Shown: piece after piece, positions 3,513-37,050 of the stretch
Layout of the letters: each line of letters begins with the position of its first letter
Position numbering within the stretch: position 1 is the first letter of the stretch
DNA from: Mustelus asterias
Lineage: Eukaryota
Direction of reading: 5' to 3'
Length of the DNA stretch: 64,000 bases
Assembly: GCF_964213995.1 (NCBI RefSeq)
Contig: NW_027590141.1
Coordinates: 1,302,001 to 1,366,000, forward strand
Made by a program: the position numbers and the translations under genes
The notes under the pieces: model-generated
The model's input: the letters and a program-made list of their open reading frames with translations, nothing else
Databases searched by the model: none
Told to the model about the DNA's origin: nothing

Positions 3513-6332
3513 ATGGATGCGGACTGCAATGCACGGCATTGCAGAGGTGGGGTGGAGCAGGGTTTGAAATGTGTATACTTCAATGCCAGGAGTATTCGCA
3601 ATAAAGTGGGTGAACTTGCAGCGTGGATCAGTACCTGGGACTTCGATGTTGTGGCTATTTCAGAGACATGGATAGAGCAGGGGCAGGAATGGATGCTGCA
3701 GGTCCCGGGGTTCAAATGTTTTAGTCGAAGTAGGGAAGGAGGTAGAAGAGGGGGAGGGGTAGCATTATTGGTCAGAGATTGTATCACAGTGTCAGAGAGG
3801 AGGTTTGATGAGGACTTATCTGTTGAGGTAGTATGGGCGGAGATTAGAAATAGGAGAGGAGAGGTCACCCTGTTGGGAGTCTTTTATAGACCTCCTAAAA
3901 GTTCTAGAGAGGTTGAGGAAAGGATTGCGGAGTCAATCCTGCTTAGGAGTGAAAGTAATAGGGCAATTGTTATGGGGGATTTTAACTTGACTAATATTGA
4001 CTGGAATTGTTATAGCTCTAGCTCGTTAGAGGGGTCAGTTTTTGTTCAAAGCGTGCAGGAAGGTTTTTTGACTCAGTATGTAGACAGGCCAACTAGAGGT
4101 GAGGCTATATTGGATCTGGTGCTGGGAAATGAGCCAGACCAGGTGCTAGACTTGGAAGTTGGTGTGCATTTTGGTGATAGTGACCACAATTCGGTTACGT
4201 TCACCTTAGTGATGGAAAGGGATAGGCATGAACCTCGGGCCAGTGGTTTTAGCTGGGGGAAGGGTAATTATGAGGCTATTAGGAGAGAATTAGGAAACAT
4301 AGGTTGGACTAGGAGATTACAGGGACTGGGAACGTCCGACATGTGGAGTTTTTTCAAGGAGCAGCTACTGCGAGTCTGTGATAGGTATGTCCCTGTCAGG
4401 CAAGGAGGAATTGGTAGGGCTAGGGAACCGTGGTGCACCAAAAAAGTTTCTTTGTTGGTTAAAAAGAAAAAGGAGGCTTATGTTCGGATGAGACGTGAGC
4501 ACTCGGGTAGTGCACTAGAAAGCTTTAGATTGGCTAAGAGGGAGTTGAAGAGCGAGCTTAGAAGGGCTAAAAGGGGACATGAGAAGACTTTGGCGGATAG
4601 GGTTAAAGAGAATCCTAAGGCGTTCTATAGGTATGTCAAGAACAGAAGGTTGGTTAGGGCAAGTTTAGGGCCAGTTATAGATGGCAGAGGGAAGTTATGT
4701 GTGGAACCGGAGGAGATTGGTGAAGCATTGAACCAATATTTCTCTTCGGTGTTCACGCAAGGGGACATGAATATAGCTGAGGAGGACACTGGGTTGCAAG
4801 GGAGTAGAATAGACAGTATTACAGTTGATAAGGAGGATGTGCAGGATATTCTGGAGGGTCTGAAAATAGATAAATCCCCTGGTCCGGATGGGATTTATCC
4901 AAGGATTCTCTGGGAGGCAAGAGAAGTGATTGCAGAGCCTCTGGCTCTGATCTTCAGGTCGTCGTTGGCCTCTGGTATAGTACCAGAAGATTGGAGGTTA
5001 GCGAATGTTGTCCCATTGTTTAAGAAGGGGAACAGAGACTTCCCCGGGAATTATAGACCGGTGAGTCTCACTTCTGTTGTCGGCAAGATGTTGGAAAAAA
5101 TTATAAGGGATAGGATTTATAGTTATTTGGAGAGTAATGAATTGATAGGTGATAGTCAGCATGGTTTTGTGGCAGGTAGGTCGTGCCTTACTAACCTTAT
5201 TGAGTTTTTTGAGAAAGTGACCAAGGAGGTGGATGGGGGCAAGGCAGTGGACGTGGTATATATGGATTTTAGTAAGGCGTTTGATAAGGTTCACCATGGT
5301 AGGCTTCTGCAGAAAATGCAGATGTATGGGATTGGGGGTGATCTAGGAAATTGGATCAGGAATTGGCTAGCGGATAGGAAACAGAGGGTGGTGGTTGATA
5401 GTAAATATTCATCATGGAGTGCGGTTACAAGTGGTGTACCTCAGGGATCTGTTTTGGGGCCACTGCTGTTTGTAATATTTATTAATGATCTGGATGAGGG
5501 TATAGTTGGGTGGATTAGCAAATTTGCTGATGACACCAAAGTCGGTGGTGTGGTAGACAGTGAGGAAGGGTGTCGTAGTTTGCAGGAAGACTTAGACAGG
5601 TTGCAAAGTTGGGCCGAGAGGTGGCGGATGGAGTTTAATGCGGAGAAGTGTGAGGTAATTCACTTTGGTAGGAATAACAGATGTGTTGAGTATAGGGCTA
5701 ACGGGAGGACTTTGAATAGTGTGGAGGAGCAGAGGGATCTAGGTGTATGTGTGCATAGATCCCTGAAAGTTGGGAATCAAGTAGATAAGGTTGTTAAGAA
5801 GGCATATGGTGTCTTGGCGTTTATTGGTAGGGGGATTGAATTTAGGAGTCGTAGCGTTATGTTGCAACTGTACACAACTCTGGTGCGGCCGCACTTGGAG
5901 TACTGTGTGCAGTTCTGGTCCCCACATTACAGGAAGGATGTGGAGGCTTTGGAGAGGGTGCAGAGGAGGTTTACCAGGATGTTGCCTGGTATGGAGGGGA
6001 GATCCTATGAGGAGAGGCTGAGGGATTTGGGATTGTTTTCGCTGGAAAGGCGGCGGCTAAGAGGGGATCTTATTGAAACATATAAGATGATTAGAGGTTT
6101 AGATAGGGTGGATAGTGATAGCCTTTTTCCTCTGATGGAGAAATCCAGCACGAGGGGGCATGGCTTTAAATTGAGGGGGGGTAGTTATAGAACCGATGTC
6201 AGGGGTAGGTTCTTTACCCAGAGGGTGGTGAGGGATTGGAATGCCCTGCCAGCATCAGTAGTAAATGCGCCTAGTTTGGGGGCGTTTAAGAGATCCGTAG
6301 ATAGGTTCATGGACGAAAAGAAATTGGTTTAG
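3513..6332 (+). CDS. CR1 ORF2p: APE endonuclease plus reverse transcriptase (939 aa)
   Basis: Endonuclease motifs YFNARS, ISETW, GDFN, SDHN. RT motifs [33 protein letters not shown]. Confidence 0.97.
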   Translation: MDADCNARHCRGGVEQGLKCVYFNARSIRNKVGELAAWISTWDFDVVAISETWIEQGQEWMLQVPGFKCFSRSREGGRRGGGVALLVRDCITVSERRFDEDLSVEVVWAEIRNRRGEVTLLGVFYRPPKSSREVEERIAESILLRSESNRAIVMGDFNLTNIDWNCYSSSSLEGSVFVQSVQEGFLTQYVDRPTRGEAILDLVLGNEPDQVLDLEVGVHFGDSDHNSVTFTLVMERDRHEPRASGFSWGKGNYEAIRRELGNIGWTRRLQGLGTSDMWSFFKEQLLRVCDRYVPVRQGGIGRAREPWCTKKVSLLVKKKKEAYVRMRREHSGSALESFRLAKRELKSELRRAKRGHEKTLADRVKENPKAFYRYVKNRRLVRASLGPVIDGRGKLCVEPEEIGEALNQYFSSVFTQGDMNIAEEDTGLQGSRIDSITVDKEDVQDILEGLKIDKSPGPDGIYPRILWEAREVIAEPLALIFRSSLASGIVPEDWRLANVVPLFKKGNRDFPGNYRPVSLTSVVGKMLEKIIRDRIYSYLESNELIGDSQHGFVAGRSCLTNLIEFFEKVTKEVDGGKAVDVVYMDFSKAFDKVHHGRLLQKMQMYGIGGDLGNWIRNWLADRKQRVVVDSKYSSWSAVTSGVPQGSVLGPLLFVIFINDLDEGIVGWISKFADDTKVGGVVDSEEGCRSLQEDLDRLQSWAERWRMEFNAEKCEVIHFGRNNRCVEYRANGRTLNSVEEQRDLGVCVHRSLKVGNQVDKVVKKAYGVLAFIGRGIEFRSRSVMLQLYTTLVRPHLEYCVQFWSPHYRKDVEALERVQRRFTRMLPGMEGRSYEERLRDLGLFSLERRRLRGDLIETYKMIRGLDRVDSDSLFPLMEKSSTRGHGFKLRGGSYRTDVRGRFFTQRVVRDWNALPASVVNAPSLGAFKRSVDRFMDEKKLV

Positions 6333-6779
6333 GTTGGAGGGTCACAGTTTTTTTTTTTTTTTAACTGGTCGGTGCAACATCGTGGGCCGAAGGGCCTGTT
6401 CTGCGCTGTAATGTTCTATGTTCTATGTTCTATGTTCTATATTTTTATTGAATTCAAATTTCACCATCTGCCGCGCTGGAATTTGAACCTGGGTTCCCAG
6501 AGGATCACCCTGGGTCTCTGGATTGCTAGTCCAGTGACGATACCACTATACCACCGCGTCCCCTGACAGGCGGGGATACTAACCTCTACACTAATGAGGA
6601 AGTTGCTGATTAAACATAAGAAATAGAAGCAGGAAGAGGCCATTCAGCCCTTCAGGCCTGCTCTGCTACTCAATAAGATCATGCCTGATCTTCACCCTCC
6701 CCATAATGCTAAATTCCCTTTGTATCCGATATCAATCTTTGTCTTAAATAACTCCCAACCCCACACTCTTCCCAATAAG

Positions 6780-24110: not shown

Positions 24111-24780
24111 TGATGAGCAGAACAACAAAATCAGGGCAGCGAAGATAATTTGTATTCATACTGTGTCTTTAACAAAATAAAATAGTCCCAGACATTTCAC
24201 AAAATTGTTCCAGTTCTTTGAAAAAGGGTAGCACAGTGGTTAGCACTGCTGCCTCACAGCTCCAGTGACCCAGGTTCAACTCGAGCCTCGGGTGACTGTG
24301 TCTCCCCGTGTCTGTGAGGGTTTTCATCTGGGTGCTCCTGTTTCCTCTCACAGTCCAATGACGTACAGGCTTGGTGGATTGGCCATGATAAATTGCCCCT
24401 TAGTGCCCCAAGATGTGTAGGTTCGGGGAAGTAACAGGATATGTGGGGCTCCGGGGATAGGACCTGGGTGCAGAGTCCAGACAAGTTGGCAGGTTTCTTT
24501 CCCTGAAGGACCATGAGTGAATCAATTGAATCCAGCAGTTTTCATGGTCACATTTTCCTGGTGCCGGCCCCACAAATGACCAGATTCATTCAGCTCAATT
24601 TCACAACCTGTCTTTGTGCTTTTGTGGGTTCTCTCTCACTCCCTTTTTTCTGTTTTAAATCAATTTCACAGGATTTTAGAAGGGGACGATTTGCAGTTGG
24701 GAAACTGAAACCAAACATCACATCAGGGAATGATACAGTCGGCTAATTTATCGTAACCTGAATATTGTCATATTTTAAAC

Positions 24781-25482
24781 ATGGAAGAAAAAAGCACCGT
24801 TCACAGCGGAGAGAAACCCTACTCGTGTTCTGTGTGTGGTCAGGGATTCAATCGATCATCTGACCTGTCAAAACATAAATGCAGTTATGATGGGGACAAG
24901 CTGTGGAAATGTGAGGACTGTGGGAAGGGATTCAATTACCCATCCCAGCTGGAAACTCATCAGCGTGGTCACACCAGGGAGAGGCCGTTCACCTGCTCGG
25001 ACTGCGGGAAAGGATTCATTAAGTCATCCACCCTGCTGACACACCAGCGCACACACACTGGGCAGAGGCCATTCACCTGCTCTATGTGTGGGATGGGATT
25101 CACTCAGTCACCCACGCTGCTAACACACCAGCAAATTCACACTGGGGAGAGGCCATTCACCTGCTCTGACTGTGGGCAGGGATTCACTCACCAATCCACC
25201 CTGCTGACACACCAGCGAGTTCACACTGGACAGAGACCATTCACTTGCTCTAGGTGTGGGAAGAGATTCACTCAATCATCAGCACTGCTCAGACACCAGC
25301 GAGTTCACACTGGGGAGAGACTGTTCATCTGCAATGATTGTGGGAAGAGATTCACTCAGTCATCCAACCTGCTGACACACCAGCGAGTTCACACTGGGAA
25401 GAAACCATTCACGTGTTCTGAGTGTGGGATGGGATTTACTCAGACATCCAACCTGCTGAGACACCAGCAAATTCACAATTAA
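24781..25482 (+). CDS. C2H2 zinc-finger protein (ZNF-C), 8 units
   Basis: [14 protein letters not shown]... Finger 1 lacks its last His and seven fingers are intact. Acceptor ttcacag at ~24670. Confidence 0.88.
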
Positions 25483-26865
25483 CTCCAGAGATTGGATTGT
25501 GTTGTCAATCAGATTGAGAACTGAGCTATATCCATTAGGATCTGATTCTGCTGATGTTAATAAACTTCAGGTCAGTTATAGAGGCTAATATTCTGGACAA
25601 AAATCAAATAATTTGTCTTTGATTTGATTTGATTTGTCTTTGAACCCACACAGACATGGAGGAAAGCTGCTGAATTGTCATAAAAACCTAAGTGGTATGC
25701 TGATGTCTGTCAAGAAAGGAAATCTGACACCTGGTCTAGAGTGGAGACAGCGAGAAGTAGAAGGGGCCGGGGTGAAGGAGAGGGATTTTATACATCTAGA
25801 ACTCAATGAGAACTTTGACAGCATCTCCCAAATCCTCAACCTCCACCACCTAGAAGGACCAAGGTAGCAGGTAGATGTGAACGCCATCACCTCCGAGTTT
25901 CTCTCCCCCAACTCGCACACAATCCTGACTTGTCTGATATCCAGTACTAAAAGGATTGTATTTGTCGGGTTCTCCGGTTCTCTTTTTGTTTGGGACCGAT
26001 GTATCTCGTTCTGTCATTCCGCCTCGGTTTCTCTATCTCCCTTTGTCCTGCTTCTGACCGTCTCTGTCTTCACACTGGCTCTATGTTCTTCTGTTTCTCC
26101 CCTTTTCCCTAAAGTTCAGGGTTGAGACAATCCGATTTCTTCCACTCTCTCATTTCAACGAGTCCACTCAATTACTCATTATATTATCGCAGCAATAATT
26201 GATAACGTTAATAACCAGAACTTAAGGGGTAACATTACGATGGAAAGATTTAAATGCAAATAACTAAAGAATATAGGAAATGAATGTGAATCCAGGGTCA
26301 TGTTTGCATCTTGTGTTGTTATTTTAGACTAGGCATCTTATCGGAATCTTGGTGGCTCCTTCTTGTTTAAAATGGGCGTTTATAACCACTATTAATTGAA
26401 TAAAGCGAATCGCCAGCAACAAAATAAAGTTGGGATTATCTCTCATGCATACGTTCAACTGCATCAAATTACATTGCAATAGTAAAAGTACTGCAAGAAT
26501 AATCCGACATCGTGGCACAGTGGTTAGCCGTGCTGCGTTACAGCGCTGGGGACCTGGGTTCAGTCACTGTCTGTGTGGAGTCTGAAAATTCTCCCTGTGT
26601 CTGTGTGAGTTTCCTCCGGGTGCTCCGGTTTCCTCCCGCAGTCCGAAAGATGTGCTGGTAATGTGCATTGGCCATGCTAAAATTTCCCTAAGTGTATCCG
26701 AACAGGCGCCAGAGTATGGCGACTAGGGGATTTTCACATTAACTTCATTGAAGTGTTGATGTGACTGAAAATTTCCAGCATTAAGCCGATGTTTGAATGA
26801 TCAGTGTCTGTTCCATGGGCTCTCTTCGCTCTGAGATATTTAATATCTTCTGTGTTTTGTTACAG

Positions 26866-27169
26866 GGATAAATGTTGAAGCTTCAGTGTTTCAAGATCGA
26901 TCTAAATGAAGCGTTCTGGAAGGACAGAGCATATTGTTGGACTGTAAATACTCGACAGCTGCTTTTCAAACTGTGTTCTGGTGCATCCACTATCCCGGGC
27001 AAGCTCTGAGATATTTGATGAAGATATATAGCTCGGGCAATACCGATACGTCTCCGGATTTGTCAGATAGGTTCTCGGCTGCTTTGCACAAAGGAAACAA
27101 CACTGTTCCTTTAAAAATCGCCAGGGCTCTTCTGCCTGACAGCGCCGTGTATTTCTGTGCCATGGAGTT
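26866..27169 (+). pseudogene. T-cell receptor alpha/delta-like V gene segment (V exon), pseudogene
   Basis: Acceptor ttacag|, then GINVEASVFQDRSK*SVLEGQSILLDCKYS...VFWCIHYPGQALRYLMK...DRFSAAL...VPLKIARALLPDSAVYFCAME. It has the Ig-V Cys/Trp/Cys and DSAVYFCA motifs, with an in-frame TGA at 26907. Confidence 0.88.
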
Positions 27170-27209
27170 CACACTGGTGCAGAAATACAGCGAACTCCGC
27201 CCAAAAACC
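27170..27209 (+). promoter_or_regulatory. V(D)J recombination signal sequence (23-type)
   Basis: Heptamer CACACTG at 27170-27176, 24-bp spacer, nonamer CCAAAAACC at 27201-27209 (8/9 match to ACAAAAACC), directly after the V exon. Confidence 0.8.
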
Positions 27210-28256
27210 CCAGACTGGGGGTTCCGGTTAGAGATCAGCAGAGGGCGCTCCCGCACCGATAAACAGAAACAATTATATCGTGTCCACAGAAAGAGTCACA
27301 AGATCATAAATGAAATATCAAATCAAAACAGAACACTCAACCTGAACAGCTGTGCCGCAGTTGGGTTTTTAACTTGCAACTATACTAAAAATACAGTTAT
27401 GCTTCGTTCACTCATGCTCAGTCCTTTGATGATATTTCCTTGCTCGTGTAATTACTGTGTAGCACTTTCCCCATCTTGACTGTCCGTTTCGAGGTCGCTT
27501 TGCTCAAAGGGTCTGTTTGGTCAGAGTATTTTGCTGCCTAACGGACAGTTTATAGAACATATGCATTTCGCAAGGTTGCCATTGTGCTATTTAAAACAAT
27601 CCCTGGGAACAAGTTACCATCAATGTTCATTCTCATTTTGTATATCTGTGAAATGTTTTCTGACACAATTCGTAAGCCAGGGCTTCCGCCTGACAATAAC
27701 AAGACCAGGGAATTCATTCCCACCCGTGCCCTTAACAATAAAGTGATTTTCCTAATGGGCACATTGATTAAATCCCAGATTGGGATATTTCTGCTCACTG
27801 AAAGGCAGGTCTCCAACATTGGCAAACATGTAAATGACGTGAGAGAATGCAATGACACTAGAACAGATTAATGAGAGTGCAGATTAGATTGAGACTCCTC
27901 TGTTTCATCTTCCCTTTTACAGAACGTACAGCAACAATGCGGGAAGGCAGAAGTTGGGTGTTCTGGGGAATTTCAGAGAAGCAATTGTGGAATAAACACA
28001 TTTAATCTAATTTCCCAATCGCAATTTCAACCTAAAGTTTAAAAGTATTCCGACATGAGAGAGCACTTCAAAAAGGAATTCAGATATGTTGATGATGTGA
28101 AAAAGATTCAACACAGTATTAAACACAAAGCTGGTTTATTTTGACTTCTATTCAGAATATTAAACCACACAACTGGCTGGAGTTCATTATCAGCAAAAAT
28201 CCAATTAACACATTACAGTCATGGATAGGATTAACAGCAGATTCCAATCACTGTGG

Positions 28257-28958
28257 TTACTTGTGAATTATTTGGTGTCTAAGCAGGTGGAATGCCTGAG
28301 TGAATCCCTTCCCACATTCAGAGCAGATGAATGGCCTCTCCCCAGTGTGAACTCGCTGGTGTGTCAGCAGATTGGAGGACTGACTGAATCCCTTCCCACA
28401 CTGAGAGCAGGTGAATGGCCTTTCCCCAGTGTGGGTGCGCTGGTGTACAATGAGGTTACATGAATGCCTGAACCTAGTCCCACAGTGAGAGCACCTGAAT
28501 GGTCTCTCGTCAGTGTGAATACGTTGATGGGACATGAGTGCATCAGAACTTTTGTAGCACTTCCCACAGTCTGAGCATTTAAAAGGCCTCTCATCAGTGT
28601 GAACCCGCTGATGTGTCAGCAGGTTGGATGACCGAGTGAAGCCCTTCCCACACTCTGAGCAGATGAATGGCCTTTCCCCAGTGTGAATGCGCTGGTGTGA
28701 CACCAGATTTCCTGACTCAGTAAATCCTTTGCCACACTCAGAGCAGGTGAATGGCCTCTCCCCAGTGTGAATGCGCCAATGAATTTTCAGCTGGAATGGG
28801 TAATTGAATTCCTTTCCACAGTCCACACATTTCCACAGTTTTTCCATGGAGTGACTGCACTTGTGTCTCGATAGGCCAGATGATCGGCTGAAGTCTCGTC
28901 CACACACAGAACACATGTATGGTTTCTCTCCACTGTGAACGGTGCGTTTTCCTTCCAT
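28257..28958 (-). CDS. C2H2 zinc-finger protein (ZNF-D), 8 fingers; inverted paralogue of ZNF-B
   Basis: [19 protein letters not shown]..., 8 intact units, with flanks homologous to those of ZNF-B. Confidence 0.9.
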
Positions 28959-29165
28959 GTTCAAAATCCACTGATATTCAGTTACGATAAATGAGATGAC
29001 TGTCAGATTCTGATATGATATTTATTTCTTGTTTCCTCACTGCAAATCGTCTCATCCTAGTTCCTGTGAAATTGATTTGAAACAGAGAAAAAGTGGATTG
29101 AGAGAGAGCCCACAGAGACAGGTTATAAATAGAGTTCAGACTGAAGCAACAATAACAAAAACACT

Positions 29166-32940: not shown

Positions 32941-33504
32941 TATAGCCCCAGGGCTGTCACTCAAAGCCCCAACCCCGTCCAGTTCACAGCTCAGCCTCTC
33001 AGCTTGCAGCTTCCTGCACCTTGAGCCAACCCTGTCCAGGTGTGGGAGGGATGTGGAACCACAGAGTGGGGGGAGGGGTGACCTCCTGCTGTGTCCCAAA
33101 TAGTCTCTCCTTCCCCTCCCCCTTGGCGCTCTAAGCTCTCAATGTGGATGTGTTGATGGACATTGCAGAGCCTCACTGAGCTGCGCCTGTCCCTTATCCT
33201 GGGTCACCCCCTCCCCCTGGGTTCAGTGTGTGAACTCGCTGCTTGTTTACCTGCTGAACCTTCAGTTAATCAAAAACAGAAAGTGCTGGAAAACCTCAGC
33301 AGGTCTGATCACATCTGTGATCATCCAGACTGGAAGCATTAACTCTATTCTCTCTCCACAGATGCTGTCAAACCTGCTGAGATTTTCCAGCATTTTCTGT
33401 TTATGTTTCAGATTCCAGCATCCGCAGTGTTTTGCTTTTATCTTCATTTAAACAAACATTCTGTGAAGGCCTTTACCCCCATTGCTCCTTTCCAGAGATT
33501 CCCA

Positions 33505-34938
33505 CATAGAACATAGAACATAGAACATTACAGCGCAGAACAGGCCCTTCGGCCCACGATGTTGCACCGACCAGTTAAAAAAAAAAACTGTGACCCTCCA
33601 ACCTAAACCAATTTCTTTTCGTCCATGAACCTATCTACGGATCTCTTAAACGCCCCCAAACTAGGCGCATTTACTACTGATGCTGGCAGGGCATTCCAAT
33701 CCCTCACCACCCTCTGGGTAAAGAACCTACCCCTGACATCGGTTCTATAACTACCCCCCCTCAATTTAAAGCCATGCCCCCTCGTGCTGGATTTCTCCAT
33801 CAGAGGAAAAAGGCTATCACTATCCACCCTATCTAAACCTCTAATCATCTTATATGTTTCAATAAGATCCCCTCTTAGCCGCCGCCTTTCCAGCGAAAAC
33901 AATCCCAAATCCCTCAGCCTCTCCTCATAGGATCTCCCCTCCATACCAGGCAACATCCTGGTAAACCTCCTCTGCACCCTCTCCAAAGCCTCCACATCCT
34001 TCCTGTAATGTGGGGACCAGAACTGCACACAGTACTCCAAGTGCGGCCGCACCAGAGTTGTGTACAGTTGCAACATAACGCTACGACTCCTAAATTCAAT
34101 CCCCCTACCAATAAACGCCAAGACACCATATGCCTTCTTAACAACCTTATCTACTTGATTCCCAACTTTCAGGGATCTATGCACACATACACCTAGATCC
34201 CTCTGCTCCTCCACACTATTCAAAGTCCTCCCGTTAGCCCTATACTCAACACATCTGTTATTCCTACCAAAGTGAATTACCTCACACTTCTCCGCATTAA
34301 ACTCCATCCGCCACCTCTCGGCCCAACTTTGCAACCTGTCTAAGTCTTCCTGCAAACTACGACACCCTTCCTCACTGTCTACCACACCACCGACTTTGGT
34401 GTCATCAGCAAATTTGCTAATCCACCCAACTATACCCTCATCCAGATCATTAATAAATATTACAAACAGCAGTGGCCCCAAAACAGATCCCTGAGGTACA
34501 CCACTTGTAACCGCACTCCATGATGAATATTTACTATCAACCACCACCCTCTGTTTCCTATCCGCTAGCCAATTCCTGATCCAATTTCCTAGATCACCCC
34601 CAATCCCATACATCTGCATTTTCTGCAGAAGCCTACCATGGTGAACCTTATCAAACGCCTTACTAAAATCCATATATACCACGTCCACTGCCTTGCCCCC
34701 ATCCACCTCCTTGGTCACTTTCTCAAAAAACTCAATAAGGTTAGTAAGGCACGACCTACCTGCCACAAAACCATGCTGACTATCACCTATCAATTCATTA
34801 CTCTCCAAATAACTATAAATCCTATCCCTTATAATTTTTTCCAACATCTTGCCGACAACAGAAGTGAGACTCACCGGTCTATAATTCCCGGGGAAGTCTC
34901 TGTTCCCCTTCTTAAACAATGGGACAACATTCGCTAAC
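33505..34938 (-). mobile_element. 5'-truncated copy of the intact CR1 at 2448-6440
   Basis: Its translation from LANVVPLFKKG to DEKKLV is the same as the 3513-6332 ORF2, and it has the same 3' tail. It sits at a site that is empty in the paralogue (~18078). Confidence 0.95.
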
Positions 34939-37050
34939 CACCTTCTGCTATTGCCCCTGAATCCCACATTAACCCTGTCATTCCTCCCCTTTACCCCGCT
35001 CACCCTGTCTAAACTCAGGCTCAGAGTTTTCCCGCCATCTCCCCCTCCCCCAGCCTCCACATCCCAACACCCGGAATCTCTAACCCAGCGGTTCCAGTTT
35101 ATCTGGTTTGAGTTCAGATTTGCCGCAGCACCGACAGGATTTCACTTCAAACCAGCCGGAACTGACTGCTCACAAATCCCTAAATGTTTCTCCAGCAGCC
35201 CGGGCTGGTTAACGTTGTTTAAAGTCAGCGCCCAAATGCAGTTACTCTCCTCAGTTTAAAAAACTTCTCCATTTAATCTAAGGTATTATTCGCGCCAGAC
35301 ACAAATATAAAACAGTGAACTTTATCCCCCCACCCTGACCCGAGCTGGAGTGTCCCGAGGAAGCGACATCTGTTCCGGGTGTGACAATTCTTACACATTC
35401 TCTGTGACATAAAGCAGAAAACGCTGGAAATACTCATGAATGAAAGCAAATTGTTGCTTTTGTCAAGAGAGTCATCTGGACTCGAAACGGCAGCTCTTTT
35501 CTCTATTTACAGATGCTGCCAGACCTGCTGAGATTTTCCAGCATTTTCTGTTTTGGCTGGAAACACTCAACAAGTCAGGCAGCCTCTGTGGAGAGAGAAA
35601 CAGACTGACTGTGACCTGTCATCGAACTGGGAAATATATTTCCCGCAACTGAAAGAGGTATCTTACAACCTTCGGAACAAAACTGAGTTCAACAATTTTA
35701 CACCACATTCTCTGCCCCCTTTGCGTTCTGTGTTTCGTTGTTGCTTTTTTCACCTCTTGTTTTCTTTACTTCGTATTCAGACTGCTGCTATTCACACCTC
35801 ATCCAGAACATCTTTTGTGACTTTACTTGTCCCATTACCACTCGCTTTGGTATTGAGCCGTGAATCATTTTGTCAGTTTGCAGACCTTTCATTTTGTTCT
35901 TCTCCATCTCCCTCTCTCCCTCCTTCACAGGCCTGGCTTTCTCTGGGTGGCACTGGAGAGCGAACTAGACTTGAGATGTTTGAGACAGAGAGATTGAAAT
36001 GTTTTTTTCTCTCAGAGGGTCTTTGGTTTCTCTTCCCCAGAGAGCAGTGAAGACAGAGTCATTGAATGTTTTTAAGACTGAGTAAATGGATAAAAGCAAA
36101 TTACTGCGGATGCTGGAATCTGAAACCAAAAGAGAAAATGCTGGAAAATCTCAGCAGATCTGGCAGCATCTATAAAGTGAGAAAAGAGTGGACGTTTCGA
36201 CTCCAGATGACCCTTTGTCAAAGCTAAAAGGCATAGAAAGTGGGAGATATTTATACTGCAGGGTGAGGGAATGAAAAATGAGTCACAGCCACAGAAACTC
36301 GGGTAAAGAGCTGCTAATGGCAGTCCATCGAGAGAATAAAGGGTGTGAATGGCCAACGGCAGAGAAGCTGAAATCAGCTGTGACAGATGAAGATGTGGGG
36401 GGAGGGGGAGAGGGAATGGGAAGAAGAGAGGTAAAATGGGAAAAGGGGGGAAGGGAAATAAAAGGGGGAGAAAAGGTAAGGAAAGGATGGAGGTAGACAG
36501 GAAAGTGGAGTTGTGGTCGCAATCAGATCAGCCAGGATCTTATCAAATGCTGGAGCAGAGGGGCCACTGCTGCTCCGGATTCATGTGGGTGTTTGACTGT
36601 ATGTTTCACTCTGTTTCTGTCTCCACAGAAGCTGCCGGGTCTGTTCACTATTTGGGGCTTTGACTATTTTTATTTCAGATTTGAAGCATCTGCAGGATAT
36701 TCTGTCCATGCAAACCCAACACACCTTTCATTGTTTAATGCAGAGCAGTGCATGTGCACGGTGCTCCCTGTCAACAGGAGAGAATGTTGTGAATTCCTAT
36801 CCTGGATTGACTGGGATGGATTTTGTAAATTAATTTTATCTGGGTTAGAAGGGAAGGATTTACACACACAAAATTCAAAACCCTGTTTCTTATTTCAATA
36901 TTGGATATATGAGTCGCTGGTAAGGTCGCTGCATTTCAAACAGAGCTTGCGAGTGTTTTGAAGTGTTTTCTTTAAAAGTCCCCTTCACTCCTGTGCTACT
37001 CAGGAGAAGATTTCACATTCACATTCTCCAGGATAGAGGGGCAAGAGAAC

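Follow-up and report, generated by a model that had tools for sequence, protein, structure and literature searches.

Antigen-receptor genes of elasmobranchs have been described as a complex in which TCR V exons and pseudogenes lie amid IgM clusters, over ~9 Mb in the white shark (Table S1 of PMC12227049). The same source presents TCR alpha/delta as a translocon, with C-delta beside C-alpha in catshark and stingray (Table S1), and its main text contains no mention of zinc finger, ZNF or orphon. The translocon is also the layout given for shark TCR genes in the accessible text of PMC6795676, where miniclusters are attributed to Ig, and passages from the main text of the elephant-shark paper do not give a C-delta count. 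ZNF280A, ZNF280B and PRAME lie between V genes of the human IGL locus according to an excerpt of PMC9282919, and in newts TRA and TRD are separated and TRA is duplicated, a separation called unusual in the accessible part of PMC12698447. A literature search of titles and abstract openings found no report of multiple shark C-delta genes or of ZNF intermixing; key shark papers lie outside that coverage, so that the term "unpublished" is not established.

The window analysed here is a 64-kb stretch of the Mustelus asterias genome (3.68 Gb), namely positions 1302001-1366000 of contig C109, which is 1,376 kb long. It contains a TCR alpha/delta-type V exon, a pseudogene, at 26866-27169 (+ strand), directly preceded by an acceptor AG at 26864-26865. 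In agreement with the original prediction of a complete V exon, the framework residues Cys 26943, Trp 26979 and Cys 27156 are in place and the exon matches the Pfam V-set domain (E 2.7e-13, 50.5 bits, with a cut-off of 26). The exon ends four codons past the second Cys, at the RSS. V-set exon, Cys-Trp-Cys framework, acceptor and RSS directly 3′ are those of a functional V gene, whereas the open frame is broken by the single predicted stop, an in-frame TGA at 26907-26909, 14 codons from the exon start, where intact relatives have Leu, and the leader and upstream promoter are both deleted. No leader exon is found upstream of the V exon. The stop codon and the leader deletion are disabling lesions of the kind that mark a TCR alpha/delta V pseudogene. 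A non-rearranging IgSF V or UrIg-like VJ exon, which has no RSS and includes the G strand, does not fit this exon.

The RSS of the 23 class occupies 27170-27209 (+) and consists of the heptamer CACACTG (27170-27176), a 24-nt spacer and the nonamer CCAAAAACC (27201-27209); the heptamer stands at +14 from the second Cys codon, with the same spacing in intact relatives. The site scores 24.0 bits, the best in the 64-kb window, a value reached by no site in 60 Markov-simulated windows of the same length, in which the best score was 19.9. Among 91 V hits, 39 V genes have both a leader and an open frame, and their 22 distinct RSSs were used for the matrix. Since these belong mostly to the window V's own family, the score is biased towards the window site; three of the 22 intact RSSs score below it. 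The 23-type RSS predicted from the sequence is thus real and stands above the simulated background, but its spacer is 24 rather than 23 nt. A candidate 13-mer at 27236-27248 (+), which we take to be CTCF-like, lies 26 nt past the nonamer and occupies the same fixed spot in 30 of 30 family loci.

As predicted, the V exon lies between convergent ZNF genes, represented by C2H2 zinc-finger open frames of 7 fingers at 24757-25482 (+) and of 8 fingers at 28257-29021 (-), both directed at the V, the downstream one within an arm of the inverted duplication. The edge of this duplication, which had been placed at ~0.9 kb, falls at position 28059, 850 bp beyond the end of the RSS. HMM and motif scans of the window, where this had already been noted, and of 110 kb of flank revealed neither a further V nor any J or TCR C. 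The TCR-derived piece opens with the upstream flank of the parent V gene in inverted orientation (25957-26510, - strand, ~84% identity to intact relatives), followed by a SINE-like repeat within the same inverted block (26505-26762, +), of which there are 19 hits in the window, and by the 3′ remnant of the leader intron (26764-26865, +), which ends at the acceptor AG and has lost the preceding 317 bp. Beyond the RSS, the parent gene's 3′ flank extends over 27210-28058 (+); homology to intact relatives stops at 28058, and ZNF 3′ sequence follows from there. The left end of the piece is abutted by a 310-bp multi-copy element of no assigned kind or strand (25643-25953), which gave 1,461 first-look candidates; the listed matches are mostly on ZNF or Ig contigs, and among them 35 other places show 87-95% identity to the element. 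In 19 of 19 fetched copies outside the V-bearing ones a different sequence follows the element. No empty insertion site for the TCR-derived piece was found, its left neighbour being multi-copy and present elsewhere in other contexts. Separately, a 1.44-kb element found in the window (4993-6435 and 33504-34942), on C71 (13.902 and 13.918 Mb) and on C353, with 99.6-99.9% identity between copies and differing insertion points in otherwise duplicated blocks, is a very young mobile element.

The ancestral order is seen in L036 (C71, 14.797 Mb), where SINE, upstream flank, leader, intron and V follow one another. Compared with L036, the window V shows two changes: ~850 bp, the SINE among them, are inverted, and 317 bp between -188 and +128 of the ATG are deleted, a loss that took the promoter-proximal DNA, the leader exon and its donor; the joints show an overlap of a few bases, and no RSS is present at the breakpoints. 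The lack of a clear leader had been predicted correctly, but the SINE just upstream is no leader replacement: it belongs to the inverted block and has the same place in the un-inverted L036, so that insertion of the SINE in place of the leader was rejected.

The inverted flank lies on the V's strand in 12 of the 40 matches listed, which gives 12 lesion-sharing copies. Seven of these have no ZNF flanks (on C210, C96, C1069, C353, C549 and, at 6.80 and 9.43 Mb, on C71); another TCR V is situated within 4 kb in the six of them that were read far enough, a further SINE lies inside the exon in five, and the 6.80-Mb copy has the same flanks as the others of this group. The remaining five (the window, C71 at 13.905 Mb, C183, C89 and C106) consist of the 2.1-kb piece only (25957-28058) with the same two ZNF genes on either side; the block shared by the window and C71 is ~20 kb long, with 95-99.8% identity. 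Four copies share 99.6-99.8% identity, and some of them may be duplicates created by the assembly. For the five ZNF-flanked copies, carriage by ZNF-cluster duplication, which formed part of the orphon origin originally proposed, is supported.

A genome search with the window V yielded 1,469 candidates, of which the best 150 were scored and 30 fetched. Seven of the 30 are 95-100% identical to the window V and share its TGA and 24-nt spacer; the other 23 have 84-88% amino-acid identity, an open frame, a 22-nt spacer and a perfect nonamer, one of them with an altered heptamer. The TGA is present in 7/7 near-identical copies versus 0/23 intact relatives, and a full-length leader region in 0/7 versus 22/23, the leader exon of these 22 comprising 15 hydrophobic codons with a donor. 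In the maximum likelihood tree (54 rows), the lesioned copies form a clade (100/100) within the intact family (93/93), and this family is separate from the IgH-type, NAR and supporting V genes; the window V was positioned through the protein-identical L142 and by a second placement of its own row. The suggested phylogenetic check accordingly puts it in the TCR alpha/delta family, and by identity, tree position and a relative upstream of J-alpha on C546 the exon descends from rearranging V genes of that type. The sole match to the longer protein was an unnamed Mustelus asterias model, at 88% identity, and annotated TRAV or TRDV of sharks did not appear.

RSS spacers of 22, 23, 24 and 26 nt occur in V genes with leader and open frame (L147-L150, L044). 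A 24-nt spacer is found in 4/39 such genes, one family having 24 nt throughout, and also in L036, so that the expanded subfamily, with its 22-nt spacer, appears to have the derived state; the 24-nt spacer as a lesion was rejected on the same grounds. The family member with the 26-nt spacer, which has a leader and an open frame, lies upstream of the J-alpha array of C546 in joining orientation. The end of the window V has TG at positions 8-9 past the Cys codon, matching the V-alpha signature given in the accessible text of PMC10322711, and this signature together with the relative upstream of J-alpha makes use of the family in alpha chains likely, with use in delta also possible.

When changes are polarised on L044, the pseudogene branch shows 3 silent and 16 replacement changes, for which the neutral expectation is not rejected (p 0.78), and the intact branch 3 silent and 2 replacement changes, the contrast between the two not being significant (Fisher p 0.078). 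Within the intact family, pairwise dN (0.027) is about equal to dS (0.026), and dS between the pseudogene and the intact majority is ~0.10.

Absence of the leader, an intact acceptor and an upstream ZNF gene on the V's strand could be read as an exon leaderless by design, like the supporting V-delta of NAR-TCR, or as one co-opted into a ZNF transcript. Supporting V-delta genes form a leaderless family with a CDR1 cysteine and a NAR V-D-J upstream; their lack of a leader exon was reportedly described by Criscitiello in 2006. The window V resembles them in having no leader exon, but a leader is normal in its family and its own loss is secondary; moreover, supporting V-delta genes of Mustelus asterias belong to a separate clade with the CDR1 Cys, which the window V does not have, and there is neither a NAR V nor a J upstream of it. 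Assignment to supporting V-delta was rejected by the tree position and the leader of the relatives, and a co-opted exon would meet a stop after 14 codons; either version is scarcely credible. With considerable confidence, we regard the window V as a leaderless, stop-bearing pseudogene, derived from a conventional V family of shark TCR alpha/delta, that likely yields no receptor and likely spread passively with ZNF duplications on an antigen-receptor chromosome. The missing leader and the early stop make it likely that no receptor chain is produced.

Contig C109 also carries an IgM-type V-D-D-J cluster with four C exons (1,091-1,107 kb, 222 kb from the window V) and three decayed TCR V pieces (1,031-1,040 kb, ~290 kb away). 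The 20.4-Mb contig C71 contains TCR V hits from 4.7 to 19.4 Mb (among the best 150 of 1,469), many Ig C exons, three C-delta genes and one C-alpha gene. On it, a 99.8% twin of the window V has a C-delta gene 1.63 Mb upstream of it and the first J-alpha 4.47 Mb downstream. The prediction that this ZNF cluster could be intermixed with an antigen-receptor locus is upheld by the IgM cluster and V relics on C109 and by the position of the C71 twin among TCR-delta and J-alpha/C-alpha genes. Intact V genes between ZNF genes exist as well, e.g., L031, L032 and L047. As a side observation, L031-L033 (C71 at 15.165 Mb, C87 and C89) each have a V with an intact frame and a 23-RSS directly between ZNF genes, with a leader in 2/3; there are ~13 near-identical copies (13 equal-score hits) among the matches listed. 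Arrays of C1-set exons or 23-RSSs at C8 50.17-51.09, C13 60.06-61.42, C24 52.55-52.83 and C7 140.65-140.69 Mb are likely light-chain, MHC and TCR beta/gamma loci.

The orphon first proposed is a V located outside the receptor locus, which would here imply that a ZNF cluster outside the antigen-receptor complex had acquired the V through duplication. The 406 kb scanned of the 1,376 kb of C109 yielded no TCR J or C, genome-wide C-alpha and C-delta searches have no hit on this contig, and ~30 finger arrays part the window V from the IgM cluster. An orphon in the strict sense is nevertheless very unlikely given the IgM-type cluster and the three TCR V relics on C109 and the presence of the same 20-kb block on C71, home to the TCR and Ig constant genes given above; the match to the complex of PMC12227049 also makes "orphon" a less likely label. 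The location of C109 on the chromosome of C71 is our inference, because the two contigs are not joined and no TCR J or C was found in the 406 kb. A genome-wide search for the RSS pattern gave no match on C71 or C109 among the matches listed (100 of 675), and hence no help in placing the contig. In the preferred reading of a passively spread pseudogene, the window V on its own is an unremarkable pseudogene belonging to a dispersed V field that is already known, and likely inert debris.

Compatible with this reading, the RSS of a V dead as a gene might still be cut by RAG in thymocytes, with occasional joins to J-alpha or D-delta that delete or invert the intervening ZNF genes. Consistent with such cutting are the score of the site, above that of some intact RSSs, the occurrence of its spacer length in 4 of 39 V genes, retention of the CTCF-like motif and the placement of the C71 twin on the strand of the J-alpha array, i.e., in deletional orientation; the ZNF genes that separate V from J-alpha on C546 are comparable to the passengers described for human IGL in an excerpt of PMC9282919. 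The twin is nonetheless 4.47 Mb from the first J-alpha, where the mouse locus spans 1.8 Mb in all (PMC5859386), and the first nonamer base is altered in the four closest copies of the window V. The 188 bp of promoter-proximal DNA are gone and the DNA further upstream is inverted. V accessibility is promoter-dependent in mammals. We consider continued cutting unlikely; if RAG used the window RSS, the joins would be sterile and would remove ZNF passengers. For a leaderless pseudogene without a receptor, the RSS and the CTCF-like motif would still be kept because the pseudogene is young (dS as above).

The larger surprise is the locus: with the basking-shark C-delta region as a query and all candidates scored (47/47), at least 19 TCR-delta C exons were found in the genome, each with a transmembrane exon, as against the single locus described for sharks. 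They are located on C71 (7.14, 11.04 and 12.27 Mb), on C436, C119, C96, C115, C123, C138, C181 and C106, and on C850, C401, C90, C154, C3311, C110, C173 and C111 (regions L051-L082 and L188-L207). All 12 C-delta exons examined are open, with acceptor, donor and the CLxxxFxP motif, which is the C-delta signature in the accessible text of PMC10322711. Each of these 12 loci (of 19) has its own J segments, 1-4 in number and with 12-RSS, and an RSS-flanked D is present in 10/12; for ten of the 12, the upstream DNA was covered from -25 to -5 kb. The miniclusters are of at least two types, one with the order NAR V, D, supporting V, IgH-like V, D, four J and C, the other with NAR V, D, supporting V, J and C.

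Two features of individual clusters stand apart. In L194-L195, ~21 kb upstream of C-delta on C138, the first J-delta is preceded at ~1 kb by an IgM-type VH that hardly differs from the VH of the C109 IgM cluster, and no D was found between this VH and J-delta. In L079, L188 and L191 (on C436, C119 and C96, respectively), the RSS of the supporting V-delta begins 20 nt past the V match, and its heptamer, 23-nt spacer and nonamer are those of the D-delta 3′ RSS; these are possibly germline-joined V-D genes.

Only two C-alpha genes were found (57/57 candidates scored), with 85% DNA identity to each other. On C71, 33 J-alpha segments at 18.29-18.44 Mb (L083-L097) are preceded by 80 kb of ZNF genes, and on C546 (1-249259; L144-L163, L098-L102) 10 V are followed by ZNF genes (68-93 kb), ~125 J and C-alpha. 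No C-delta is present on all of C546 (249 kb) or in the 84 kb preceding the J-alpha array of C71; among the matches listed, the C-delta on C71 nearest to that array is 6.1 Mb off. Neither J-alpha/C-alpha array has the canonical translocon order 5′-TRDC-(TRAJ)n-TRAC-3′ (PMC10322711), and in the assembly the wider TCR alpha/delta region is not a single translocon.

The copy numbers of both the window V and C-delta could have been inflated by an uncollapsed or mis-joined assembly, given that several copies are 99.6-99.97% identical and located on unplaced contigs. We hold this to be decidedly unlikely. The 12 C-delta loci compared, with identities of 87-99.97%, fall into ~7 groups under 99%, most of which are 87-97.6% identical to one another; their D and J content differs, and three C-delta genes share one contig. 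Public-run contigs span the V-flank/ZNF junction at 28058, which shows presence only, and these runs may derive from the assembly's own sample. A layout with multiple delta clusters and delta-free alpha arrays is present in the assembly, with copy number and expression putative.

In the history that we propose for the window V, the order, read from the nesting of copies, would be a lesion within a V array by a non-RAG mechanism, then transfer of the 2.1-kb piece between ZNF genes, and then segmental duplication. The exon would have persisted through duplication of the ZNF block while evolving neutrally. This mapped lesion history represents one route by which V pieces may enter a ZNF field. 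At the scale of the locus, we tentatively suggest, at a level of belief that approaches but does not reach the halfway mark, that in this shark the TCR alpha/delta translocon became an Ig-like multicluster system. A ZNF field of 20 Mb or more would hold, dispersed together with IgM clusters, two TCR-alpha arrays free of delta and ~19 TCR-delta (D)-J-C miniclusters, the latter all expressed; V genes, live and dead, would ride ZNF duplications there, and RAG joins would delete ZNF blocks in T cells. If real and expressed, these genes would represent shark TCR-delta in the cluster layout of Ig and a shark example of alpha uncoupled from delta. The choice of one among many delta loci in each T cell and the removal of ZNF passengers by V-J joining would then become testable, and the locus would lend itself naturally to modelling how allelic exclusion operates when TCR loci are many and how the alpha/delta lineage is chosen when delta is not deleted.

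Among the systems described, the closest is the elasmobranch complex of PMC12227049, as represented in its main text and Table S1: in Mustelus asterias, too, TCR-type V genes, some of them pseudogenes, are spread in both orientations over megabases among IgM clusters. Unlike in that account, this genome has at least 19 C-delta genes, two C-alpha genes without a directly upstream C-delta and interleaved ZNF genes. The accessible text of PMC9282919 offers a parallel in human IGL, where ZNF genes lie within a rearranging V field and would be lost upon rearrangement; there, however, the V array harbours a few passengers, whereas in the shark the V genes are a minority in a ZNF field and the window V is dead. 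The newt arrangement, in the available portion of PMC12698447, is similar in that C-delta is not embedded upstream of J-alpha and that there are two TRA loci, but newt TRD is on another chromosome, whereas shark C71 carries both, with TRD multiplied in the form of miniclusters like those of shark Ig.
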